From IMG/VR virus record IMGVR_UViG_3300006139_000001: 64,000 bases of DNA. One strand, given 5' to 3'. Each line of letters opens with the position of its first letter. Position 1 is the first letter of the stretch. This document shows, piece by piece, positions 2,077 through 19,437 of this stretch. The position numbers and the translations under genes were made by a program. The stretch comes from a virus. The notes under the pieces are model-generated. The model did no database searches. It had not been told where the DNA came from and was given only the letters and a program-made list of their open reading frames with translations.

Positions 2077-2485
2077 GGATTTTTCCTCTCTTTCTTCCGT
2101 TTAGATATTTGTCACTCGTGTGCGTTGATTTCGCAGCTTGCATCTTAACCCCAAGAATATCAATCTCAAATGTTTTATCTTCGATTGAATAGTATGCTGA
2201 AAATTCTAATGGAATGTAAGTATCATCTACTGAAAACGAAGTAATAAATACACTGCCCCAGGCATATCCAAGTTTTTCAAAATATCCGATAAGTTCCTCA
2301 CAATAGGTATCTATGCCGTTTTCACAATCAATCTCATCTTCTGGCAGTTCCTTGATATACATATCAATATCGGAAAGAGCGGTTTGTTCTCCATAAGCAT
2401 AAGAGCCGGTTACAATCACCTTGTCTTTGATATGTTCCAGAATTTCAATTAGCTGTTCCTTGCTGCCAAGTTCTTTGTCTGCCAT
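2066..2485 (-). CDS. Minimal nucleotidyltransferase (Pol beta superfamily)
   Basis: VTGSYAYG...SDID motif (GS...DxD); GGAGG RBS. Confidence 0.75.
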   Translation of the reverse strand: MADKELGSKEQLIEILEHIKDKVIVTGSYAYGEQTALSDIDMYIKELPEDEIDCENGIDTYCEELIGYFEKLGYAWGSVFITSFSVDDTYIPLEFSAYYSIEDKTFEIDILGVKMQAAKSTHTSDKYLNGRKRGKIHEA

Positions 2486-2527
2486 CTCATAACCTCCATA
2501 AAATAGTAACTCATTTACTGTACTTAT

Positions 2528-2556
2528 AGTATATCACACTTTTGAGTTTTTGTCAA
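2528..2556 (-). promoter_or_regulatory. sigma70/sigmaA early promoter
   Basis: TTGACA-17-TATACT, extended -10 TG, AT-rich UP element. Confidence 0.9.
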
Positions 2557-2613
2557 GTGCTTTTTGAAATATTTCTCAAATGCTTTTACATTTTTTGTAT
2601 AGAGAAACGGCGC

Positions 2614-3138
2614 TCAGATATGAGTACCATCCTCTAGTTCAAAGTAATTTGAATATGTGCAACCGATTTTGTTTGCGACCTCGGCAAGCTCAGAATCCGT
2701 GAAACGTCCGTTGTTTAGCTTGCTATTGAATGTCTGCCTTGATTTACCTAGGCGCTCACTTAGTTCCATCAGAGTCATTTCTGCATGTGCGCAAGAGTCC
2801 ACAATAAGCTGACGCGCTGTTTTTGCGATATACTCTGCTCCATCATCAAATGTAAATTTGACAATGATTTTACAGCCTAAAGCCTCGGCAATTCGGCGCT
2901 GCTCGTCAAAAGTTAGTTTTCCATTTCTACACCTGGTTAAGAAATTGCTTTGCAACATACCCAGTTCCTTGCAAACTTCATATTGTGATTTATTATTAAG
3001 AAGCAAAACGACTTTTACACGTTGCTCAAAATCAGAGCTGTCAATCACAATTTTCTCTGTAATGGTTATATGTGTAACACCATCAATCACTTCGATGTCG
3101 CAGCTCGTTTGTTCTTTGTTTGCAATATTCGCCTTCAT
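2614..3138 (-). CDS. Tandem XRE-like HTH protein (candidate repressor)
   Basis: Two repeated HTH units (SQYEVCKELGMLQSNF...IAEALGC; TLMELSERLGKSRQTF...VANKIGC); GAGGT RBS favours ATG 3138. Confidence 0.75.
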   Translation of the reverse strand: MKANIANKEQTSCDIEVIDGVTHITITEKIVIDSSDFEQRVKVVLLLNNKSQYEVCKELGMLQSNFLTRCRNGKLTFDEQRRIAEALGCKIIVKFTFDDGAEYIAKTARQLIVDSCAHAEMTLMELSERLGKSRQTFNSKLNNGRFTDSELAEVANKIGCTYSNYFELEDGTHI

Positions 3139-3157
3139 TGATTTACCTCTGCTTTCC

Positions 3158-3340
3158 TTAATTTTCTTTCTCAACTTCGATATAAAGTTCTCCATCCTCG
3201 CAATAGATATACTTCATATCATAATCCATCGCTTCTTCCGCTGAGATTTCAATGCGGCGCTCGTTCTCATGGTCATAGTAGCAGTAGTGGCATTCGCCCT
3301 GAATTTCCACACAATTCAAAATTAAATCTCTGATAGTCAT
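3158..3340 (-). CDS. Small acidic hypothetical protein
   Basis: AAGGAG RBS, MTIRDLI start. Confidence 0.65.
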   Translation of the reverse strand: MTIRDLILNCVEIQGECHYCYYDHENERRIEISAEEAMDYDMKYIYCEDGELYIEVEKEN

Positions 3341-3353
3341 TTCTCTTTCTCCT

Positions 3354-3680
3354 TTACTGTGCAATGTATTTTTCAATGTGTTTCATAATCGGGTCAAAGA
3401 TTGTTACCGTGCCATACTGCATATATTTATGCTTTGTTTCTTTTGGCATCTGAAGGATGTATGCAACTTCTCCAAATTCTCCATCGCCGCCCAGCTTCTT
3501 ATATTCACGTTTTGCCCAGGCGATGAGCTTTTCAATTTCTTCTTTGAATGTGTCTACATTCTGGTAATGTGTCCGCTTTGCAATATCAATAGTGTAGCCG
3601 ACTGCGTAGTTCTCGTTGTTGCTGCTGTAATTATACTTTGCTCTTTCCATCAAATCAACTACATACTTTGGGATGTTCAT
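3354..3680 (-). CDS. Hypothetical protein
   Basis: AAGGAG RBS, first gene after a promoter. Confidence 0.75.
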   Translation of the reverse strand: MNIPKYVVDLMERAKYNYSSNNENYAVGYTIDIAKRTHYQNVDTFKEEIEKLIAWAKREYKKLGGDGEFGEVAYILQMPKETKHKYMQYGTVTIFDPIMKHIEKYIAQ

Positions 3681-3713
3681 ATCTAAACTCCTTTCTCCCT
3701 TGTTTCTGATATT

Positions 3714-3742
3714 ATTATATCACAAAGCGAACTGTTTGTCAA
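3714..3742 (-). promoter_or_regulatory. sigma70/sigmaA early promoter
   Basis: TTGACA-17-TATAAT with TG. Confidence 0.9.
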
Positions 3743-3777
3743 GTGTTTTCTGAAATATTTTTTAAATTATTTTACCG

Positions 3778-3954
3778 TTATTTCCGGTACATACGGGCAA
3801 TTTTCCTTGCCTCTCGTTTTGACTTGCCAACCATCTGACCAAGCATATTGTCCATCTCGCTTTTGTCATGTACCGGTGCTTTCTTACTGCAAGTGTTGAA
3901 TAAGTCAATCGCTCCGCTGATTCCAAAAATTCCAAGTAAAATAATTACTGGCAT
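3778..3954 (-). CDS. Small membrane-anchored protein (58 aa, below track cutoff)
   Basis: GAGGAGG RBS; MPVIILLGIFGISGAIDLF... hydrophobic N-terminus. Confidence 0.65.
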   Translation of the reverse strand: MPVIILLGIFGISGAIDLFNTCSKKAPVHDKSEMDNMLGQMVGKSKREARKIARMYRK

Positions 3955-3991
3955 AACCGTTCCTCCTCGTGTTTTCTTTGTTATGTAAAAA

Positions 3992-4345
3992 TCAGTACTC
4001 GTTATACTTGTCCTGGCGTTCCAGATAGTACTTGTTGACTAAAACCATCTGGCGGGTGAGAATGGTATAAAGACCAACTAGACCGACAAAGATACCGAAG
4101 TATTCCAGGATGCTTGCAACGATAACGCAACCAGTAATAAGGCAAGCGATGCCGACAAGCATAATTGCTACACCCATAAGGCGTTGCTGGCGGTAATAAA
4201 TCGCCCTACGCTCTCTGTCCTTGCCGATGCGCTGTTGACGGCGCTCGTTAAGCTGTTCCCTCATGTTCTCATACTCATTGAAAGACATGAATGTTTCTGG
4301 CTCGGCATATCTGCCACCATAGTTCGCTGAATAGTTGTTACTCAT
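3992..4345 (-). CDS. Membrane protein, 2 TM helices
   Basis: GGAGG RBS before MSNNY; two hydrophobic segments. Confidence 0.75.
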   Translation of the reverse strand: MSNNYSANYGGRYAEPETFMSFNEYENMREQLNERRQQRIGKDRERRAIYYRQQRLMGVAIMLVGIACLITGCVIVASILEYFGIFVGLVGLYTILTRQMVLVNKYYLERQDKYNEY

Positions 4346-4374
4346 TATAAGTTCCTCCATTAAAATTTTCCCTT

Positions 4375-5052
4375 TCATGCAACTACATTTACGCAAATAT
4401 CCATAGGTGTAATTCTGTAGGCATATTTCTTTGCGTTCTTTTTTTTGAAGATATAACCGCCCTCATAGCGCTCCAATCTTCCGGTTAAGTGACCGTAGTT
4501 GATAAACTTTCCTTCGCAAGCCTTGAAAATCCGTTCCGCTTCTTCTTTTACAGTGTCAGTGGCTTCAACCTGGCTATACTGAAAAATTGCTTGAATGTTC
4601 TTTGCCGGATAGTCCGCAAGTAATTCTTTGAGTTTTGCAAAGATACGCTCGTTTTCTTCTATATCTCCTTCCTTTTCAAGACTTAGTGTAATATAGCTAT
4701 AGTCTCTGCCGGACATTCTGCCATTTGTTGTATTATAAAGGTCATTGCACCAAAACCAGAATGTGTAATCTTTTCGGTCTTTGTAATTATAAGGTTCTTT
4801 GTACTGACCGAAGGTGAAATGCTTTTCCAGAAATTCCATGAGTTCCAGATTCTCATCTGCAATTCGCTGGCGTGTCTCATCACACCGCATAGACCATTCA
4901 ACATTGCTGTGGCTCTCTGCATATGCCCTGTTTGCAGCCTTTTCTTCCTCAGTAAAGAAACGGTCAAGTCGAATCTGATAAGGTACAACTCGCACCAAAC
5001 CTCTGTCTGCAAGCTCCTTTTTAATATAGGTCATATCGTCATGGAATTTCAT
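4375..5052 (-). CDS. Hypothetical protein
   Basis: 225-aa ORF, GGAGGT RBS. Confidence 0.8.
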   Translation of the reverse strand: MKFHDDMTYIKKELADRGLVRVVPYQIRLDRFFTEEEKAANRAYAESHSNVEWSMRCDETRQRIADENLELMEFLEKHFTFGQYKEPYNYKDRKDYTFWFWCNDLYNTTNGRMSGRDYSYITLSLEKEGDIEENERIFAKLKELLADYPAKNIQAIFQYSQVEATDTVKEEAERIFKACEGKFINYGHLTGRLERYEGGYIFKKKNAKKYAYRITPMDICVNVVA

Positions 5053-5079
5053 ATCGTTTACCTCCGTTATATTTTCGAT

Positions 5080-8857: not shown

Positions 8858-9157
8858 TTAAAAAGCATTCATTTTTTCCATCTGATGCTGATATGCCAAA
8901 TTCAAAATATCCACCGGCGCTCCCCCGTCTGGATAGTACCTTTTAATTTGTCCAGGACGGGCAATCAGCTTTGTTACAAGCCTATTCGTAATGGCATTGT
9001 ATACAACAATAATTCCGGTAGTAGTCAATACATGACGTTCCGCACCGTTTTTGTGTCCACGGTCAACGAAAAATTCCGCATACATTTTTCCTTCGCCTAT
9101 GTTGCGAATTTTCTGTTCCCGTATGTAACGATAGTTTTTGTAATGCGTACTTGTCAT
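8858..9157 (-). CDS. Hypothetical protein
   Basis: GAGGAGG RBS directly downstream of a twister ribozyme. Confidence 0.75.
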   Translation of the reverse strand: MTSTHYKNYRYIREQKIRNIGEGKMYAEFFVDRGHKNGAERHVLTTTGIIVVYNAITNRLVTKLIARPGQIKRYYPDGGAPVDILNLAYQHQMEKMNAF

Positions 9158-9178: not shown

Positions 9179-9265
9179 CTATGCGGCTTTGGACGCTCTG
9201 CCCTGGCTGCATTACATCCCGCTTTCGTTCATTCCCCCTTCGTGCGGGATGCCATCTGCATTTAG
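9179..9265 (-). ncRNA. Twister self-cleaving ribozyme (P5-type permutation)
   Basis: UGCA-GA-UGG-[P1 CAUCCCGC/GCGGGAUG]-U^AA-UGCA-GC...P4 GCG-UCCAAAGC-CGC; pseudoknots T1 UGG/CCA and T2 GC/GC; predicted cut 9214/9213. Confidence 0.8.
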
Positions 9266-9444
9266 ATATTGACAACGATTTCGCCGTTTTCGACCTCGAA
9301 GGACTGTACCTCGTCCTCCGCAAATTCGCTATACATTGCCTCGTCGAACGTTCCGGAAAATACCTCCGTTTCATCGTCCACGCTGTAGAGCTTCATTTCC
9401 TCGTATTCGCTGATGCAAAGGCTGCAAAATTCGTAAACCGTCAT
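9262..9444 (-). CDS. Small very acidic protein (possible DNA mimic or inhibitor)
   Basis: GGAGG RBS; strongly E/D-rich 60-aa sequence. Confidence 0.7.
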   Translation of the reverse strand: MTVYEFCSLCISEYEEMKLYSVDDETEVFSGTFDEAMYSEFAEDEVQSFEVENGEIVVNI

Positions 9445-9482
9445 ATTATGTATTCCTCCGTTTCTTTTTCTGATTTAATACT

Positions 9483-9743
9483 TTAGCATTCAACAAAACC
9501 CTTGCCGATGATTTTCTTCATATCCGCAAGCGTCAAGTCTGGCGCATATTCACGGAGAAAGTAGGTAATCTGTCTGGCGGTTGTCGGGCTGTATGTTCCG
9601 GTGCATTCAACCATACGCTTACCCCCGTCGATGACGATGGAAATAACACGGGTAACATAGCTGATGAAGTCGATGCGGTTGTTTTCGTGGATGTTGATTT
9701 TGCACTGGCAGCTTGCGTGATTTCTCAATTTCATAGTTTTCAT
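9483..9743 (-). CDS. Hypothetical protein
   Basis: GGAGGT RBS downstream of the hammerhead. Confidence 0.75.
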   Translation of the reverse strand: MKTMKLRNHASCQCKINIHENNRIDFISYVTRVISIVIDGGKRMVECTGTYSPTTARQITYFLREYAPDLTLADMKKIIGKGFVEC

Positions 9744-9783
9744 AGGTTATACCTCCAAAAATTTGTTGTTGTTTCGGCTTTTT

Positions 9784-9840
9784 AAGCCGGACGCCCCTTT
9801 GGGCGTTTCGTCGTAATTTTCAACGACTCATCAGCGGCTT
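9784..9840 (-). ncRNA. Hammerhead ribozyme, type I
   Basis: AAGCCG-CUGAUGA-GUCGU(UGAAAAUU)ACGAC-GAAA-CGCCC(AAAG)GGGCG-UC^CGGCUU: complete core, three perfect stems, GUC site; predicted cut 9790/9789. Confidence 0.95.
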
Positions 9841-9867
9841 TTGTGGTAACTTGTTTACTACTCTTTA

Positions 9868-9896
9868 AGTATATCACCTTCTTTTCGCTTTGTCAA
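9868..9896 (-). promoter_or_regulatory. sigma70/sigmaA early promoter
   Basis: TTGACA-17-TATACT with TG. Confidence 0.9.
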
Positions 9897-9922
9897 TACT
9901 TTTTCGGATTTAATTTTTAATT

Positions 9923-10174
9923 TTATGCGATAGCGCCTCTTTTCTTCATATCGTAGTAGCACCAGCGTTCAACTTGTTTTTCTTCCATCGCCTTGAATGC
10001 GTCAACCTGGCTGTCAAATTCCGCCTTGTATTCGTCAATCGCTTTCCGCTGTCCCTTGATGCTATTTCCGAAATAATTATAACCGGCATCCAAATCAGCT
10101 TGCATGTTCTTTATCATCGTTTCAAGCAAGCTCTGCTTGTCATTAAACCACATTTCAAACCATTTACCACCCAT
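9923..10174 (-). CDS. Hypothetical protein
   Basis: GAGGT RBS before MGGKWF; the longer track ORF reads through the ribozyme. Confidence 0.75.
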   Translation of the reverse strand: MGGKWFEMWFNDKQSLLETMIKNMQADLDAGYNYFGNSIKGQRKAIDEYKAEFDSQVDAFKAMEEKQVERWCYYDMKKRGAIA

Positions 10175-10202
10175 TGCAAAATACCTCTTTTCTTGATATA
10201 GC

Positions 10203-10267
10203 AGCGGGCTTGTAACCGCCTTCGGCTGCATTACCGGCAGCGGATTTTCGCCGCCGTTACTCTGCAT
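10203..10267 (-). ncRNA. Twister self-cleaving ribozyme (P5-type permutation)
   Basis: UGCA-GA-GUA-A-[P1 CGGCGGCG/CGCUGCCG]-G-U^AA-UGCA-GC...P4 GCGG-UUACAAGC-CCGC; T1 GUA/UAC; predicted cut 10233/10232. Confidence 0.88.
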
Positions 10268-10280
10268 TCCTCCTTGTTTC

Positions 10281-10613
10281 TTATGCAAAATCAATTTCGG
10301 ATTCTACCATCTTATACATGATGGATTCTTGATTCAGTCCCTCCTTCAGTTCTTTAATGATTCTGTATACTGTTTCCCTGGTCAAGTCCGCCTCCGCTGC
10401 AATTTCGATGCGGATGGAAGGCTCTTTGACTATTGCGCCGGTACTCTGCATTTTGTAAACGCCGCTGCAATCAATCATTGTAAAGGCGTACACGCCGAAT
10501 TTATCAATCAAAGTTTCGGCTATAAAATCCTTCGCCGTTTCCGTTTCGACTTCCTGCTTTTCGCTGTCTTTGTCGAACAGCCCAACGGTCAAAAAGTGTT
10601 CAAACATTTTCAT
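10281..10613 (-). CDS. Hypothetical protein, first gene of the early region
   Basis: GGAGGT RBS, downstream of two tandem promoters. Confidence 0.8.
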   Translation of the reverse strand: MKMFEHFLTVGLFDKDSEKQEVETETAKDFIAETLIDKFGVYAFTMIDCSGVYKMQSTGAIVKEPSIRIEIAAEADLTRETVYRIIKELKEGLNQESIMYKMVESEIDFA

Positions 10614-10666
10614 ATAGTCAACCTCCTGTTTTGTGCTTTGGTTCTGTCTTTCGTTTTTCTGATTTA

Positions 10667-10695
10667 ATTATATCACATGGTTTTCAGTTTGTCAA
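10667..10695 (-). promoter_or_regulatory. sigma70/sigmaA early promoter
   Basis: TTGACA-17-TATAAT with TG. Confidence 0.9.
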
Positions 10696-10777
10696 GTACT
10701 TTTTGAAATATTTTTCAAATTTTTTTACGACTCTTTTTGTTGCGGTTTTGCGTGCCGTGTTCCTCTTGACATTTACA

Positions 10778-13370: not shown

Positions 13371-16148
13371 ATGGAGCAAAAGAGTTGCTTAAAACTCATC
13401 TATAAGATACATAGCCGACAGTTGAAAAAAGCAAACTGGAAACTTACACTTCCGCTCGATGTCGCAATGACTGATTTTCCTGAAACCGTTGTTTCATTAA
13501 ATGACAGTCAGCTACTTCGATTTATAGATGAGATAAATGGTGTTGTTGATGTGGATAACAAGGTTAAGAGCATCCAGCACAAAATCAAGATGGAAAAGAA
13601 AAAACCTAAGAGTAGAGAAACGAGAACAATCATTAAGAATCTGTATGATGCTCTATATTCGTTGCAGTTCCAAAAGGATTATGTATGTGTGATTATGGAC
13701 AGCAACAAAGATTATGATAGAGCGAACTTAGGTTTCAGTATAAATGGTATCGAGTACAAGCGATTCCTCGGTACGAATGGCGGAATTAAAAATTCTACAA
13801 TCGTATATGTAAATGCAAAACTCTATCCAGAGTTGAAGAAACGTTTGGACAATGGGCGCAATAAAGAAGTGCCACTCGTACCCGCAAAATTAGAAGCGTA
13901 TCAAGCGCTTATCTGTTCTGGTTCTATTCCTATTCCAGAACCAAAAGGAATTATTGTCGTAAAAGACTGTATCACCCATTTCAAAGATAATGTCATTATG
14001 ATTAACGACGAAGCAGATGGTGAGCCGGTCATGACAAAAATTGATGACTACGAAATTGAGCATAACGATTCGGATGGTTATGGTCTTATGTTACCCTCTT
14101 ATTCTCGCAATGTGAATAAGTATCTGACTGGCGATGGAGAAAATGCTATATCAGGTATGAATACACGATATGCCTGGACAAAAGGCATGGTATATACTTT
14201 TGACTTTATCGAGTTTGCGGAAAAGGTTGCTGGAACTTACGAGGTCACAGATGTATGGGGCGACAAGCGAGATATTAGAGATGCGGAAGTAATTCTAACG
14301 GAGTCAATGCTAAAACTTTGGGATAGTTATGATAGCTGGGAAGATTTCTATAAGAACTGTCAGGAGAACCACTATCAATTTTCTACTCCAAAGGTTACTC
14401 CTAAAACTTTAGAGAATGTCCGTAACACAAACTATCAGTTCTTACAGAGTTATCAATTCACCGATGAAGAACTACAAGAGTTGTGCCAACCCACTATTGA
14501 TGAAATTACCGGAGTCCTCGGAATGGACTATAGAAAGAGCTTGGTTTTTCTTGCTGGGTTTGGTCTGAATGATGATAATGCTTTTAATGATGATTTTGAC
14601 TATTGTGTTCGTTCTTTGATGATAGATGAGCGAATGATTAATGACCCATTCATCCGTCGCAAGATTTGGAATATGATAGCCAAGCGCATCGAAATGGCAA
14701 AGCGTGGCGCAATTAAAGTGAACGCAAACTTTGCAATGATTTCTGGCGACCCCTATGCCCTATGCCAAAGCATTTTTGGATTAGAGATAACCGGCTTACT
14801 GAAGGCGGGAGAAATTTATCATAAGTATTGGATTGATAAAGGTTCAGATGAGTTAGCCTGTTTCCGTGCGCCGATGACGTGCCACAATAACATTCGTAGA
14901 ATGAAGCTAAACAAAAGTGATGATGTTAAACATTGGTATCAGTATATTAGAACAGCAGCGATTCTAAATTGCTGGGACACAGCTTGCGATGCGATGAATG
15001 GCGCTGACAAGGATGGTGACACCAATATGGACACCGACAATCCGATTATTGTAAGAAATACACTCAACTCTCCTACTATTGTTTGTGTACAGAGAAAGGC
15101 TGAAAAAAGAGTTGCCGATGAGAGTGATATTGTTCAGGCGAATAAACTTGCTTTCAATGATGATATCGGCATTGTAACAAATCATGTTACGAGTATGATT
15201 GAAGTTCAAGCTGGATTTGAACCTGGGACACCGGAATACGAAACTCTTGCATATCGAATTATGTGTGGTCAGCTTTATCAGCAAAATACTATCGACAGAG
15301 CAAAGGGCATTATTGCAAAACCAATGCCTGAGTATTGGTACAACGTCAGAGATAATATTGTTAAGGATGACGATGATGAAGAAACGGCAGCTCGTAAGAA
15401 TTTTAATAGAAAGATAACCGCTGCCAACAAGCCATATTTCATGACATATGTTTATCCTGCGCTGAGAACTCAGAACAATACATATAACACGAACAGTGAT
15501 AATGGCGCACTTATGAGGTTTGGTTCGTATGGAATCCGTAGTATAGAAGATTTGTATAATTACGAGCCAAAGACTAAAGAAATGATTGAATGCCTACGAC
15601 TGCACGAAGAAATGGTTGGTCGTAATCCATGTGTTGTTAATAAAATCTGTTGGATTTTTGAAGATGTTTTTAATGGCTATCTTTCAAAAAAGTATAAGCA
15701 GCCGGAATTCGATTATAGCATCTTGAAGTGCAATGTTGAGTATAGCAGAAAGAGTTATGAATCTGTTCTCGCATTATATAAAGAATATCAAAAACGAGCA
15801 GAGGTTTTTCAAAAAAAGAAGCGAACAGAAAAACTCAGTTCCCTTGAAAGCTGGGAGAAAAGAAAAATTTTTGTAGACTGGTTCAAGAAAGAGTGTGAAG
15901 TAGTTTGCAGTAACGAAAAAGAACTTTGCGATATTGTTCTTGATATTTGTTATAAGACAGAAAAATCAAAACAGTTCGCTTGGGATATTTGTGGAGATGT
16001 AATTCTGGATAACCTATTGAGAAACAAGAGCGGTGTAATTCACTTTCCTCAGTTGGTAGACGGTGATGGAGAGTTTGAGTATTGTGGAGAAAGTTTTGTG
16101 ATGTGTGAAAAAGTGATTGGTGGTGATAGCAATGATTGTATTGAATGA
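13371..16148 (+). CDS. YonO-like single-subunit RNA polymerase (cellular RdRP-related fold)
   Basis: SDGYG, KGM, FRAP and catalytic MNGADKDGD (DxDGD) motifs; position upstream of late genes as for SPbeta yonO. Confidence 0.88.
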   Translation: MEQKSCLKLIYKIHSRQLKKANWKLTLPLDVAMTDFPETVVSLNDSQLLRFIDEINGVVDVDNKVKSIQHKIKMEKKKPKSRETRTIIKNLYDALYSLQFQKDYVCVIMDSNKDYDRANLGFSINGIEYKRFLGTNGGIKNSTIVYVNAKLYPELKKRLDNGRNKEVPLVPAKLEAYQALICSGSIPIPEPKGIIVVKDCITHFKDNVIMINDEADGEPVMTKIDDYEIEHNDSDGYGLMLPSYSRNVNKYLTGDGENAISGMNTRYAWTKGMVYTFDFIEFAEKVAGTYEVTDVWGDKRDIRDAEVILTESMLKLWDSYDSWEDFYKNCQENHYQFSTPKVTPKTLENVRNTNYQFLQSYQFTDEELQELCQPTIDEITGVLGMDYRKSLVFLAGFGLNDDNAFNDDFDYCVRSLMIDERMINDPFIRRKIWNMIAKRIEMAKRGAIKVNANFAMISGDPYALCQSIFGLEITGLLKAGEIYHKYWIDKGSDELACFRAPMTCHNNIRRMKLNKSDDVKHWYQYIRTAAILNCWDTACDAMNGADKDGDTNMDTDNPIIVRNTLNSPTIVCVQRKAEKRVADESDIVQANKLAFNDDIGIVTNHVTSMIEVQAGFEPGTPEYETLAYRIMCGQLYQQNTIDRAKGIIAKPMPEYWYNVRDNIVKDDDDEETAARKNFNRKITAANKPYFMTYVYPALRTQNNTYNTNSDNGALMRFGSYGIRSIEDLYNYEPKTKEMIECLRLHEEMVGRNPCVVNKICWIFEDVFNGYLSKKYKQPEFDYSILKCNVEYSRKSYESVLALYKEYQKRAEVFQKKKRTEKLSSLESWEKRKIFVDWFKKECEVVCSNEKELCDIVLDICYKTEKSKQFAWDICGDVILDNLLRNKSGVIHFPQLVDGDGEFEYCGESFVMCEKVIGGDSNDCIE

Positions 16149-17360: not shown

Positions 17361-17448
17361 GGGTAGGTAGAGCGTAACTGGTATCGCACCGGACTGTAAA
17401 TCCGGCTCTTAATTGACACTGTTGGTTCAAGTCCAACCCTGCCCACCA
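17361..17448 (+). tRNA. tRNA-Tyr(GTA)
   Basis: Cloverleaf, CCGGA-CTGTAAA-TCCGG, long variable arm, encoded CCA. Confidence 0.95.
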
Positions 17449-17455
17449 ACTGAAC

Positions 17456-17530
17456 GGCTCGTTGGTATAATGGCTATTATATCGGACTGTCTCTCCGAAA
17501 ATGAGGGTTCAATTCCCTCACGGGTCGCCA
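17456..17530 (+). tRNA. tRNA-Asp(GTC)
   Basis: TCGGA-CTGTCTC-TCCGA, TTC loop, CCA. Confidence 0.92.
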
Positions 17531-17539
17531 TTTATATAT

Positions 17540-17615
17540 TCTCACATAGTTCAGCCGGTAGAACACCTGACTGTTAATCAGGGAGTCGTAGGTTCGAGTC
17601 CTACTGTGAGAGCCA
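17540..17615 (+). tRNA. tRNA-Asn(GTT)
   Basis: CCTGA-CTGTTAA-TCAGG, CCA. Confidence 0.95.
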
Positions 17616-17618
17616 TAT

Positions 17619-17695
17619 GAGGGCATCGTCTAACAGGTATAGGACATAACCCTTTCAAGGTTATAATGCGAGTTCGAGTCTCGCTGCCCTTACCA
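17619..17695 (+). tRNA. tRNA-Glu(TTC)
   Basis: TAACC-CTTTCAA-GGTTA, CCA. Confidence 0.93.
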
Positions 17696-17699
17696 ATAT

Positions 17700-17775
17700 G
17701 CTGGTGTGGCGCAACTGGTAGCGCAACTGACTTGTAATCAGTAGGTTGCAGGTTCAATTCCTGTCGCCAGCTCCA
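17700..17775 (+). tRNA. tRNA-Thr(TGT)
   Basis: ACTGA-CTTGTAA-TCAGT, CCA. Confidence 0.95.
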
Positions 17776-17807: not shown

Positions 17808-17978
17808 TTGAAACAGATTAGTAACGAAGAAATGAAGAAATTGATTGATAATAAGTATCTGCGTAACGGCAGCAAAGGTTTTGTTGATAAGCGTGGCGAT
17901 ACTGTTGGCTTTTATCGCACAAGGAATAAACGATATATTGAGGATAGGTATGTAGATATTGCAAAGAAACTGCCATGA
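17808..17978 (+). CDS. Small basic protein (56 aa)
   Basis: AAGGCGG RBS, TTG start, open frame filling the tRNA-nuclease gap. Confidence 0.55.
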   Translation: MKQISNEEMKKLIDNKYLRNGSKGFVDKRGDTVGFYRTRNKRYIEDRYVDIAKKLP

Positions 17979-17994
17979 GAAAGGAATATGCCAT

Positions 17995-19437
17995 ATGAGC
18001 AAAAAGAAGTTAAAAACAGATGGCATTTATTTTACTGGCATGGCTTCTGACGAAGTGACTGGTTCACAATATCTTGTACGCTTCGGAAAATATCAATGCT
18101 TATTAGAATGTGGTTTGCACCAATCCTCTAGCAATAGCTACTTGGATTCATATAAGATAAACTCTGAAAAGTTTAAGTTCAAGCCATCTGAGATTGATTT
18201 TGTTTTTGTTGCGCATCCGCATATTGACCATTGTGGTTTAATTCCAAGATTAGTCAAACAAGGTTTTCGTGGAAAGATTATCGCAACTAAAAATACTGAT
18301 ACTATTATGAAGCCGCTGTTACTGAACTCTTGTTACATTGTCGGTGATGAAGCAAGAATCCTATCAAAGCGATATAAAAGAGATTATGAACCTCTGTATG
18401 AGGAATCAGACGTTTATACCGCACTAAGCCTTGTTCAAGAGTATAGTGAGTATAACACAGTATATCGTCTTAATGATACAATTAGCTTTCAGTGGTTAAG
18501 AAACTCTCATTGTGTTGGAGCGGCGCAATTGCAATTGATTCTACATAATGATGAGAAAACAAGAAAAATTTTATATACTTCTGATATTGGTTCGCTAAAA
18601 ACTAACAACCACTATCTTACTGATACTGAGATTCCAGATATGTTTAACGATGTTGTTATTATGGAATCTACATATGGAAGCTCCAAGCGTGAAACCAAGA
18701 AATCAAGAAATTTTGATGTGCAGCATCTAAAGATTGCCATCAATACCGTTTTGGAGCGTAAAGGCTCTGTTATTATGCCATGTTTTAGTTTTAGCAGAAC
18801 ACAAGAGCTTTTATCTACTCTGTATGATATTTATGGAAATGATAAGGATTTTGACACCCAAATTGTTGTTGACTCTAAGTTAAGCTGTGATATTAGTAAG
18901 CTGTATTCATCTGTTTTGGATGGAGAAAATTTAGAAGCATGGGTGTCTGTATATAATTGGGAGAATGTGAAGTTTATCTCCGATAAAGATGATTCACAGC
19001 GCTCTCTGATGGACTCAACACCGAAGATTATTATTTCATCTTCTGGTTTTTGCACAAATGGTAGAGTTATCAATTATCTCAAAAAGTACATTAAAGATAG
19101 AAATAGTATGATTATCTTCTCTGGGTACATCGGAGATAACCCATCATATCTATCATATCGAATTAAGAATTACAGAGAACACAAATTTATTAGCATAAAC
19201 AAAGAGAAAATTTTAAATCTCGCAGATTGTATTACTCTTTCAACTTTTAGTAGCCATGCAAGTTATAGTGATTTGATTAAGTATGGAAGTTCGTTAAAAA
19301 CGAACAAACTATTCTTAGTCCACGGTTCTGCTGAAGGTAAAAAATGTCTGTCTGATGGGCTACAAAAGGCAATCTGCAAAAATGATAAGTCATATAGAGC
19401 AATTTCAGCCTTTAGAGGCATGATTGTTCATTTATAG
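17995..19437 (+). CDS. MBL-fold beta-CASP ribonuclease
   Basis: HPHIDH, SHCVG, YTSDIG, MESTYG, FSSHA and LVHG motifs. Confidence 0.9.
   Translation: MSKKKLKTDGIYFTGMASDEVTGSQYLVRFGKYQCLLECGLHQSSSNSYLDSYKINSEKFKFKPSEIDFVFVAHPHIDHCGLIPRLVKQGFRGKIIATKNTDTIMKPLLLNSCYIVGDEARILSKRYKRDYEPLYEESDVYTALSLVQEYSEYNTVYRLNDTISFQWLRNSHCVGAAQLQLILHNDEKTRKILYTSDIGSLKTNNHYLTDTEIPDMFNDVVIMESTYGSSKRETKKSRNFDVQHLKIAINTVLERKGSVIMPCFSFSRTQELLSTLYDIYGNDKDFDTQIVVDSKLSCDISKLYSSVLDGENLEAWVSVYNWENVKFISDKDDSQRSLMDSTPKIIISSSGFCTNGRVINYLKKYIKDRNSMIIFSGYIGDNPSYLSYRIKNYREHKFISINKEKILNLADCITLSTFSSHASYSDLIKYGSSLKTNKLFLVHGSAEGKKCLSDGLQKAICKNDKSYRAISAFRGMIVHL

Follow-up and report, generated by a model that had tools for sequence, protein, structure and literature searches.

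Three predicted self-cleaving ribozymes of two classes in a putative early operon of an SPbeta-like phage

Introduction

What do self-cleaving ribozymes accomplish when several of them, belonging to different classes, lie between the genes of a single phage operon? The question is posed by a 64,000-nucleotide (nt) stretch of viral DNA, referred to here as the window, which is taken from the minus strand of the IMG/VR record IMGVR_UViG_3300006139_000001 (160,718 base pairs (bp); rated complete by CheckV). A first-pass annotation of the window reported two twister ribozymes and one hammerhead ribozyme near the start of an operon, and proposed that they divide its transcript into gene-sized messenger RNAs (mRNAs), possibly including circular ones. 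Bacteria and phages carry small self-cleaving ribozymes by the thousand, and their biological role has yet to be settled (review PMC6765202). Here we describe the sequence features that identify the three elements, their occurrence and placement in related phages, and the explanations that may account for their presence.

Results

Two twister ribozymes of type P5

The whole window was scanned with the Rfam model for type P5 twister ribozymes (RF02684; gathering score 37.6 bits), and the two twisters of the first-pass annotation, both on the minus strand, score above this threshold (Table 1). Each has the conserved core, with the U-A cleavage dinucleotide in UAAUGC together with the AAGCC loop, and departs from the consensus only at positions that covary with their T2 partners. 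Both have helices P1, P2 and P4, and a loop closes P1 as in the P5 permutation; no P5 helix was seen between the flanks of either. In twister 1 the T2 pseudoknot is GUA/UAC, T1 is GC/GC and P2 is UGCA/UGCA. Twister 2, which begins 1 nt past the stop codon of the gene we call g4, has a T2 pseudoknot of UGG/CCA and an insertion of about 20 nt in its P1 loop.

We compared six type P5 copies, the two in the window and four from related phages, and found five different complementary triplets at T2 (GUA/UAC, UGG/CCA, GGA/UCC, GCA/UGC and UAG/CUA). T1 is GC/GC, or AC/GU in the copy of one relative, and P2 and P4 covary too. The phage occurs in rodent-gut samples along with a few strain variants (contigs of four metagenome runs), and all three ribozyme cores of the window are unchanged in the mouse-gut variants; these strains differ only in a run of G in the P1 apical loop of twister 2 (9233–9238, minus strand), to which one or two G are added. 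No further ribozyme was found elsewhere in the whole genome at Rfam cut-offs. We conclude that, judged by model scores and covariation, both twisters are genuine type P5 members.

Two other interpretations of the twister segments were set aside. Twister 1 could be read as part of a longer open reading frame (123 amino acids (aa) from TTG 10294, or 114 aa from ATG 10267); this was rejected because a GGAGG lies only 1 nt before ATG 10267, and a well-spaced Shine-Dalgarno site precedes ATG 10174. Self-capping of the twister 3' products, in which the new 5' end pairs over 4–5 bp with the 3' flank in each of the six copies of the clade, was dropped because these segments fold no better than shuffled sequences.

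A type I hammerhead ribozyme below the Rfam threshold

The hammerhead matches the full length of the Rfam type I model RF00163 at 23.7 bits, under the gathering score of 34 bits, which is an operational cut-off and not a biochemical criterion. Its E-value is 7e-4 in a search of 161 nt (9740–9900), and it is unlisted at E ≤ 1 in an Rfam search of the full 64 kilobases (kb). The RAGATH-1 hammerhead model (RF03152) gives 23.3 bits at this locus against a gathering score of 56.3 bits. 

The order of the hammerhead elements is AAGCCG, CUGAUGA, a stem II hairpin, GAAA, a stem III hairpin, GUC and CGGCUU. The invariant core (CUGANGA, GAAA and UH, with the A15.1-U16.1 pair) is complete, reading CUGAUGA...GAAA C...GUC; stems I, II and III have 6, 5 and 6 bp respectively, stem I being open and stems II and III closed. 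This fold is the minimum-energy structure (z = -3.4). A type I descriptor combining the core and the three helices has one match on both strands of the 160,718-bp genome, at 9840–9784, and among 500 random genomes of equal size (first-order) it was matched 79 times with stems of at least 3/3/3 bp, once with stems reaching 5/4/5 bp, and never with 6/5/6 bp.

Using a pattern drawn from the stem II region, we identified a subfamily of this hammerhead in 22 viral contigs (L225–L246), comprising 21 distinct copies. All positions of stem I (5 bp), stem II and stem III (6 bp) are paired in 21 of 21 copies, each with two to five pair types. Loop II is constant (UGARAAUU), and no partner for it, such as would make the stem I–loop II tertiary contact on which fast cleavage depends, was identified in the subfamily. 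One contig (L227) carries three copies inside 1.5 kb. The copy in a related phage genome, G005, likewise falls under the RF00163 gathering score, at 29.6 bits. Because the core is complete, the match is unique in the genome and the 21-member subfamily covaries, we conclude that the hammerhead identified in the first-pass annotation is real by these sequence criteria, and that it belongs to a phage type I subfamily missed by the Rfam type I cut-off.

The predicted 3' product of the hammerhead starts with a hairpin, CGGCUU-AAA-AAGCCG, which lies flush with the new 5' end and competes with stem I. The closest relative (locus L248) has a form of it with 4 bp; the hairpin is absent from G005 and from about half of the subfamily, and we rejected it as a conserved feature of the hammerhead. 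A contig break at 9789/9791 in a DNA sequencing run was also considered, and is no evidence of cleavage.

Predicted cleavage sites and their placement

Cleavage is predicted between the U and the AA of the conserved UAA in the twisters, and after GUC in the hammerhead. All three ribozymes are on the coding strand of an operon whose first five genes we call g1 to g5, within 1.6 kb of the tandem promoters P1 and P2 (Table 1), and each lies in a gap between a stop codon and a Shine-Dalgarno site. From cut to start codon the distance is 58 nt for twister 1 (start 10174), 46 nt for the hammerhead (start 9743) and 56 nt for twister 2 (start 9157), in line with the 45–60 nt of the first-pass annotation, whose cut coordinates and internal fragments of 443 and 576 nt are correct. 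The 3' terminus of each 5' product would coincide exactly with the end of a stable hairpin (P1 of 8–9 bp in the twisters, stem III of 6 bp in the hammerhead), a consequence of the circular permutations of these ribozymes. Proximity to a ribosome-binding site is seen more widely: among 82 twister cores in viral contigs, 52% have a Shine-Dalgarno site and start codon within 60 nt downstream, compared with 16% of random same-strand positions and 11% of positions on the antisense strand.

Ribozymes at the equivalent region of related phages

We examined two sets of relatives, 25 terminase-related records and six loci anchored on homologues of g1. Among the terminase-related records there are five with twisters, three with type II hammerheads and two with members of the type I hammerhead subfamily; pistol and twister-sister ribozymes were not found in this set, and both are present in the g1-anchored loci. 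Where relatives have ribozymes, they are in the equivalent early region. Thus G014 has two twisters and a type II hammerhead inside 1 kb, and G005 has a type I hammerhead 8 nt past its g1 homologue (56% identity to g1), followed by a type II hammerhead and then a twister. Five of the six g1-anchored loci have ribozymes: a 161-kb ENA contig (L250) carries a twister-sister, a type P5 twister, a pistol and two further twister-sisters inside 3 kb (2129–5069, plus strand), L249 has two pistols, L252 has a twister directly after g1, and L248 and L251 have one type I hammerhead each. Each L250 ribozyme ends 25–33 nt before a called gene, and the first twister-sister is a leader element: a promoter precedes it by about 230 nt, and no gene is called in the intervening DNA.

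The spacing is tight on both sides, as the distance from the ribozyme 3' end to the next start codon is 20–43 nt in 19 of 21 cases, and that from the upstream stop codon to the ribozyme is 0–37 nt. The slot after g1 is occupied by a twister in the window and in L252, by a hammerhead in G005 and by nothing in L254; on these comparisons the ribozyme class appears to be interchangeable at equivalent slots. Neither type P5 twisters nor type I hammerheads were found in five GenBank phages (MT835469, TR-TP1, LC76P1, LIBA2945 and MT835816), and searches of viral contigs with the small early proteins g1 and g3 found no relatives.

These comparisons also bear on a different view, in which the ribozymes chiefly mark the borders between gene cassettes that phages exchange, or are passengers in decay; their conserved DNA would serve phage recombination, and cleavage would matter little. 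Unrelated genes follow homologous hammerhead modules, which include the 3' flank AAACAACAAC, in the genome studied here (G000) and in G005; L248, whose g1 is 85% identical, has none of the block of twister 1, g2 and promoter P3 that lies between g1 and the hammerhead; distribution among the relatives is patchy; and the early regions share little DNA besides promoter cassettes. However, compensatory changes keep every helix and both twister pseudoknots despite sequence drift, which suggests that the RNA fold, and not DNA identity, is what selection maintains, and all core nucleotides are intact. We therefore regard a mainly recombinational role as decidedly improbable.

Possible consequences of cleavage for early mRNA

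The explanation we favor is that these are genuine ribozymes whose co-transcriptional cleavage segments the early mRNA, or defines its ends, without the help of proteins, and we think this fairly probable. A polycistronic RNA would be made from the tandem sigma-A promoters, and each ribozyme would fold and cut itself 46–58 nt before the next start codon. The upstream piece would close with the ribozyme hairpin (P1 of the twister or stem III of the hammerhead) and a 2',3'-cyclic phosphate, and the downstream piece would have a 5'-hydroxyl (5'-OH) and a short leader running straight into a strong Shine-Dalgarno site. The outcome would be gene-sized mRNAs with defined ends, with no host or phage protein needed. 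We infer that cleavage occurs in vivo and that its effect, whether mRNA segmentation or end definition, is selected. Ribozymes located in leaders (the hammerhead after promoter P3 and the first twister-sister of L250) argue that the 5' end matters, and the equally tight spacing to stop codons argues that the 3' end does.

Several observations weigh against this explanation. The hammerhead is about 20 nt downstream of P3, a promoter absent from the first-pass annotation, and is thus a 5' leader element and not an intercistronic one for P3 transcripts, which have no upstream cistron to be separated. Helix P4 of twister 2 is weak, with two standard pairs and one flagged mismatch. The ribozymes are dispensable in the clade, as only 7 of the 25 terminase-related records have any of the families searched for, and the two closest by terminase (84% and 80% identity) have none of them. 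Finally, the 5'-OH end made by the glmS ribozyme marks RNA for decay in Bacillota (review PMC6765202, citing Collins 2007), and cleavage could thus shorten rather than lengthen the life of an mRNA.

A possible if somewhat doubtful variant is that, in the host-transcribed early operon of SPbeta-like gut phages with a YonO-type RNA polymerase of their own, the interchangeable ribozyme classes (twister, type I and II hammerhead, pistol and twister-sister) act as a standard signal 20–43 nt upstream of ribosome-binding sites, and that the selected product is the non-canonical mRNA ends themselves. These ends (5'-OH on the downstream piece, and a hairpin with cyclic phosphate on the upstream one) would either escape or deliberately engage host decay enzymes that need a 5'-phosphate or a 3'-OH. 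Ribozymes in leaders right after promoters would then indicate that cistron separation is not the point.

It is also conceivable that the new 5' end is selected, rather than separation of cistrons, with cleavage stripping off variable upstream RNA, including a 5'-triphosphate leader, and leaving a short leader of standard form beside the ribosome-binding site, so as to insulate or activate downstream translation; the synthetic RiboJ part, and ribozymes in the 5' untranslated regions of some RNA viruses, work in this way. The leader positions after P3 and in L250 and the tight spacing to start codons agree with this, as does the hairpin that the window hammerhead leaves flush with its new 5' end; the 5' end of an early transcript of halovirus HF2 maps within 3 nt of a hammerhead cut (PMC3088659), and ribozyme self-cleavage is required for translation initiation in RNA viruses (PMC13725137), although that result concerns cap-independent translation in eukaryotes. 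But the spacing to upstream stop codons is equally tight, so that how the upstream mRNA ends may be just as important, the flush hairpin is missing from G005 and about half of the hammerhead subfamily, and the 3' products of both twisters are no more structured than shuffled sequences. Taking these together, selection for the 5' end in place of cistron separation seems unlikely.

The 5'-OH ends could alternatively form a built-in timer, being fed to RNase J1-type 5' exonucleases so that early mRNAs are short-lived and early expression ceases with no phage factor involved. In Gram-positive bacteria, the product of glmS ribozyme cleavage undergoes degradation (review PMC6765202). The host is probably a member of the Bacillota (see below), and the twister 3' products have one to three unpaired 5' nucleotides; the hammerhead product, in contrast, has none. 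Moreover, a strong Shine-Dalgarno site near the 5' end usually stabilizes Bacillus mRNAs, and a timer of this sort strikes us as improbable.

The first-pass annotation raised the possibility that the 443-nt and 576-nt fragments are joined into circular mRNAs, which could be accomplished by host RtcB or by healing enzymes with a ligase. The predicted 5'-OH and 2',3'-cyclic phosphate ends suit RtcB, and the phage encodes an RNA-ligase-family protein outside the window (436 aa; PF09414 and a PHA02142 OB-fold domain; L247:71-2259, equivalent to G000:C1:24491-26679). However, the fragment ends are not complementary beyond chance, as 197 of 300 and 267 of 300 shuffled sequences pair head to tail at least as well, and the phage has no RtcB. 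Its ligase, whose family we take to seal 5'-phosphate to 3'-OH ends, is beside a gene with a transfer RNA (tRNA) nucleotidyltransferase-like domain, which suggests tRNA repair, and from their sequences the two look like a tRNA repair module. In comparable arrangements, a search by Perreault et al. (2011) for circular or spliced products was negative (PMC3088659). Circle formation has next to no probability in our estimation, and this part of the earlier proposal is not sustained. Segmentation of linear mRNA, or definition of its ends, remains the explanation we prefer.

The phage and its putative early operon

The phage terminase is nearest to those of SPbeta-like, Clostridioides and Thomasclavelia phages. 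By these relationships and its occurrence it is an SPbeta-like phage of the mouse gut, and we infer from the same relatives that its host is among the Bacillota. The ribozyme-bearing operon is divergent from a gene for a YonO-type single-subunit RNA polymerase, and this layout is kept in relatives. Promoters at 10.7–10.8 kb had been predicted in the first-pass annotation and are well supported, with P1 and P2 matching 11 and 12 of the 12 consensus positions and each having a TG element (Table 1). No terminator-like site was found on the minus strand from P1/P2 down to 8.8 kb.

Table 1. Positions of the ribozymes, promoters and genes discussed in the text (window coordinates).
Feature	Position	Strand	Details
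Twister ribozyme 1, type P5	10266-10204	-	RF02684 56.4 bits, E 4.6e-9; predicted cut 10233/10232
Twister ribozyme 2, type P5	9260-9182	-	RF02684 43.7 bits, E 8.2e-6; predicted cut 9214/9213
Type I hammerhead ribozyme	9840-9784	-	RF00163 23.7 bits, full model; predicted cut 9790/9789
Hairpin CGGCUU-AAA-AAGCCG	9775..9789	-	5' end of hammerhead 3' product; -7.3 kcal/mol fold
Promoter P1	10778..10806	-	TTGACA-17-TATACT with TG; 11/12 consensus matches, sigma-A
Promoter P2	10667..10695	-	TTGACA-17-TATAAT with TG; 12/12 consensus matches, sigma-A
Promoter P3	9868..9896	-	TTGACA-17-TATACT with TG; 11/12 consensus matches, sigma-A
g1, first operon gene	10281..10613	-	110 aa; DUF3574 / SAM-lyase-like; Pfam PF12098, 31.9 bits
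g2	9923..10174	-	83 aa; no family match; Shine-Dalgarno AGAGG 9 nt before ATG
g3	9483..9743	-	86 aa; phrog_4264 (function unknown)
g4	9262..9444	-	60 aa; no family match
g5	8858..9157	-	99 aa; no family match
YonO-type single-subunit RNA polymerase	13371-16148	+	925 aa; RdRP Pfam family match; RdRP-like fold of YonO

A profile of g1 built from 25 homologues matches the phage S-adenosylmethionine (SAM) lyase Svi3-3 (PDB 6zm9; E 1e-4), with the invariant GVY, E and QE positions of the g1 family aligning with Svi3-3, and several of the homologues have precomputed matches to Pfam PF23780. In relatives, g1 homologues are kept beside the gene for the YonO-type RNA polymerase and often adjoin a ribozyme. 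A SAM-lyase-like protein encoded by the first early gene is reminiscent of T3 gene 0.3, and from these similarities g1 is possibly an early anti-restriction or metabolic-takeover gene resembling that of the T3 SAMase. The description of these genes as early, host-takeover functions in the first-pass annotation is therefore plausible, given the tandem sigma-A promoters, the divergent YonO-type polymerase gene and the SAM-lyase-like g1, and is retained here as an interpretation only.

Several other features of the region and genome were noted. Apart from the promoter cassettes at 10659–10730 and 9868–9931 (minus strand), nothing in the early region matches the DNA of other phages. The cassettes match MT835816.1 at 85% identity and also several places in G002–G004 and G014, and contigs of other genomes from the metagenome runs stack exactly on these cassettes. 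By our own gene calls, each minus-strand gap longer than 80 nt contains a promoter-like site or a ribozyme; a 97-nt gap (3778–3680) was considered as a structured RNA and ruled out, as it contains another promoter-like site. The g3 homologue in G014 (L093:6811-7064, plus strand; 70% identity over 40 aa) has a stop codon after about 36 codons and continues in another frame, which could be a frameshift, a sequencing error or a pseudogene. The genome has many tRNA genes, and directly downstream of a tRNA cluster (17365–17772) there is a gene for a 492-aa metallo-beta-lactamase/beta-CASP ribonuclease (17959–19437, plus strand) whose best NCBIfam matches are to the Cas14 MBL-CASP model and aCPSF1, both far under their cut-offs; from this resemblance it may be a phage RNA-processing enzyme. 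The genome record begins within a tRNA gene (G000:C1:1-52) and has a tRNA array at its other end, and the 'linear' record is probably an arbitrary break in a circular or permuted assembly.

Discussion

The arrangement described here is a further example of a kind that has been described since 2011, and the processing idea is plausible and is not new. What is added is a defined setting, namely the early operon, headed by a SAM-lyase-like gene, of SPbeta-like phages that encode a YonO-type polymerase. Also added are the interchange of classes at equivalent slots that lie at a tight spacing from the ribosome-binding site, and a hammerhead subfamily that lies under the Rfam cut-off and is widespread in contigs of uncultured viruses (IMG/VR). 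The locus is a compact test case: within 1.6 kb it has small genes, promoters of consensus sigma-A type and three ribozymes from two classes. It also offers a natural swap design, since the equivalent slot in relatives has a different ribozyme class or none.

The closest precedent is the report of Perreault et al. (2011) that prophages contain single genes or short runs of genes with several hammerheads at their flanks, that every ribozyme in three such arrays cleaves in vitro on native transcripts of about 2 kb, and that the transcripts may be processed into gene-length mRNAs, with circles raised as a possibility (PMC3088659). In common with those arrays, at least two self-cleaving ribozymes (predicted in this instance) are on the coding strand of phage DNA and flank single genes or short blocks, and the flanked genes vary; unlike them, the locus described here mixes two classes, is in an SPbeta-like early operon with a YonO-type polymerase, and has one promoter-proximal ribozyme in a leader. 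The twisters belong with the type P5 family of Roth et al. (2014), passing its cut-off and having its helices and pseudoknots, and differ from it in nothing at the family level, although no P5 helix is seen and twister 2 has its long P1-loop insertion. The use of other classes at the slots of relatives matches the clustering of twister, hammerhead, pistol, twister-sister and hatchet ribozymes (Weinberg et al. 2015, via PMC6765202), an association that was the route by which those classes were discovered (PMC6765202). According to a 2019 review, ribozymes in bacteria are found clustered together and close to phage genes, and processing of polycistronic RNA has been suggested, with their purpose undefined (PMC6765202).

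Ribozymes placed before a single gene provide a second comparison. The hammerhead of haloviruses HF1 and HF2 is just upstream of the first early open reading frame, and has a mapped 5' end close to its cut (PMC3088659), although it is a single ribozyme with a variant core in a virus of an archaeal host. RiboJ insulators and the ribozymes in the 5' untranslated regions of RNA viruses (PMC13725137) similarly place a hammerhead and then a hairpin upstream of the ribosome-binding site, with cleavage removing the upstream context; however, RiboJ is engineered, the viral examples concern eukaryotic cap-independent translation, and the hairpin of our hammerhead is not conserved across its subfamily.

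A third comparison, with the processing of T7 and T3 early mRNA, is one of working only and does not imply membership in the same system. RNase III processes the early mRNA of T7 and T3, and Bs-RNase III the early RNA of SP82; in T7 and T3, tandem strong host promoters are followed by an anti-restriction first gene (the T3 SAMase) and by cuts between early genes that leave 3' hairpins. The operon described here similarly has tandem promoters, a SAM-lyase-like g1 and then predicted intergenic cuts with 3' hairpins, but in this case the RNA would cut itself, leaving 5'-OH and 2',3'-cyclic phosphate ends where RNase III leaves 5'-phosphate and 3'-OH.

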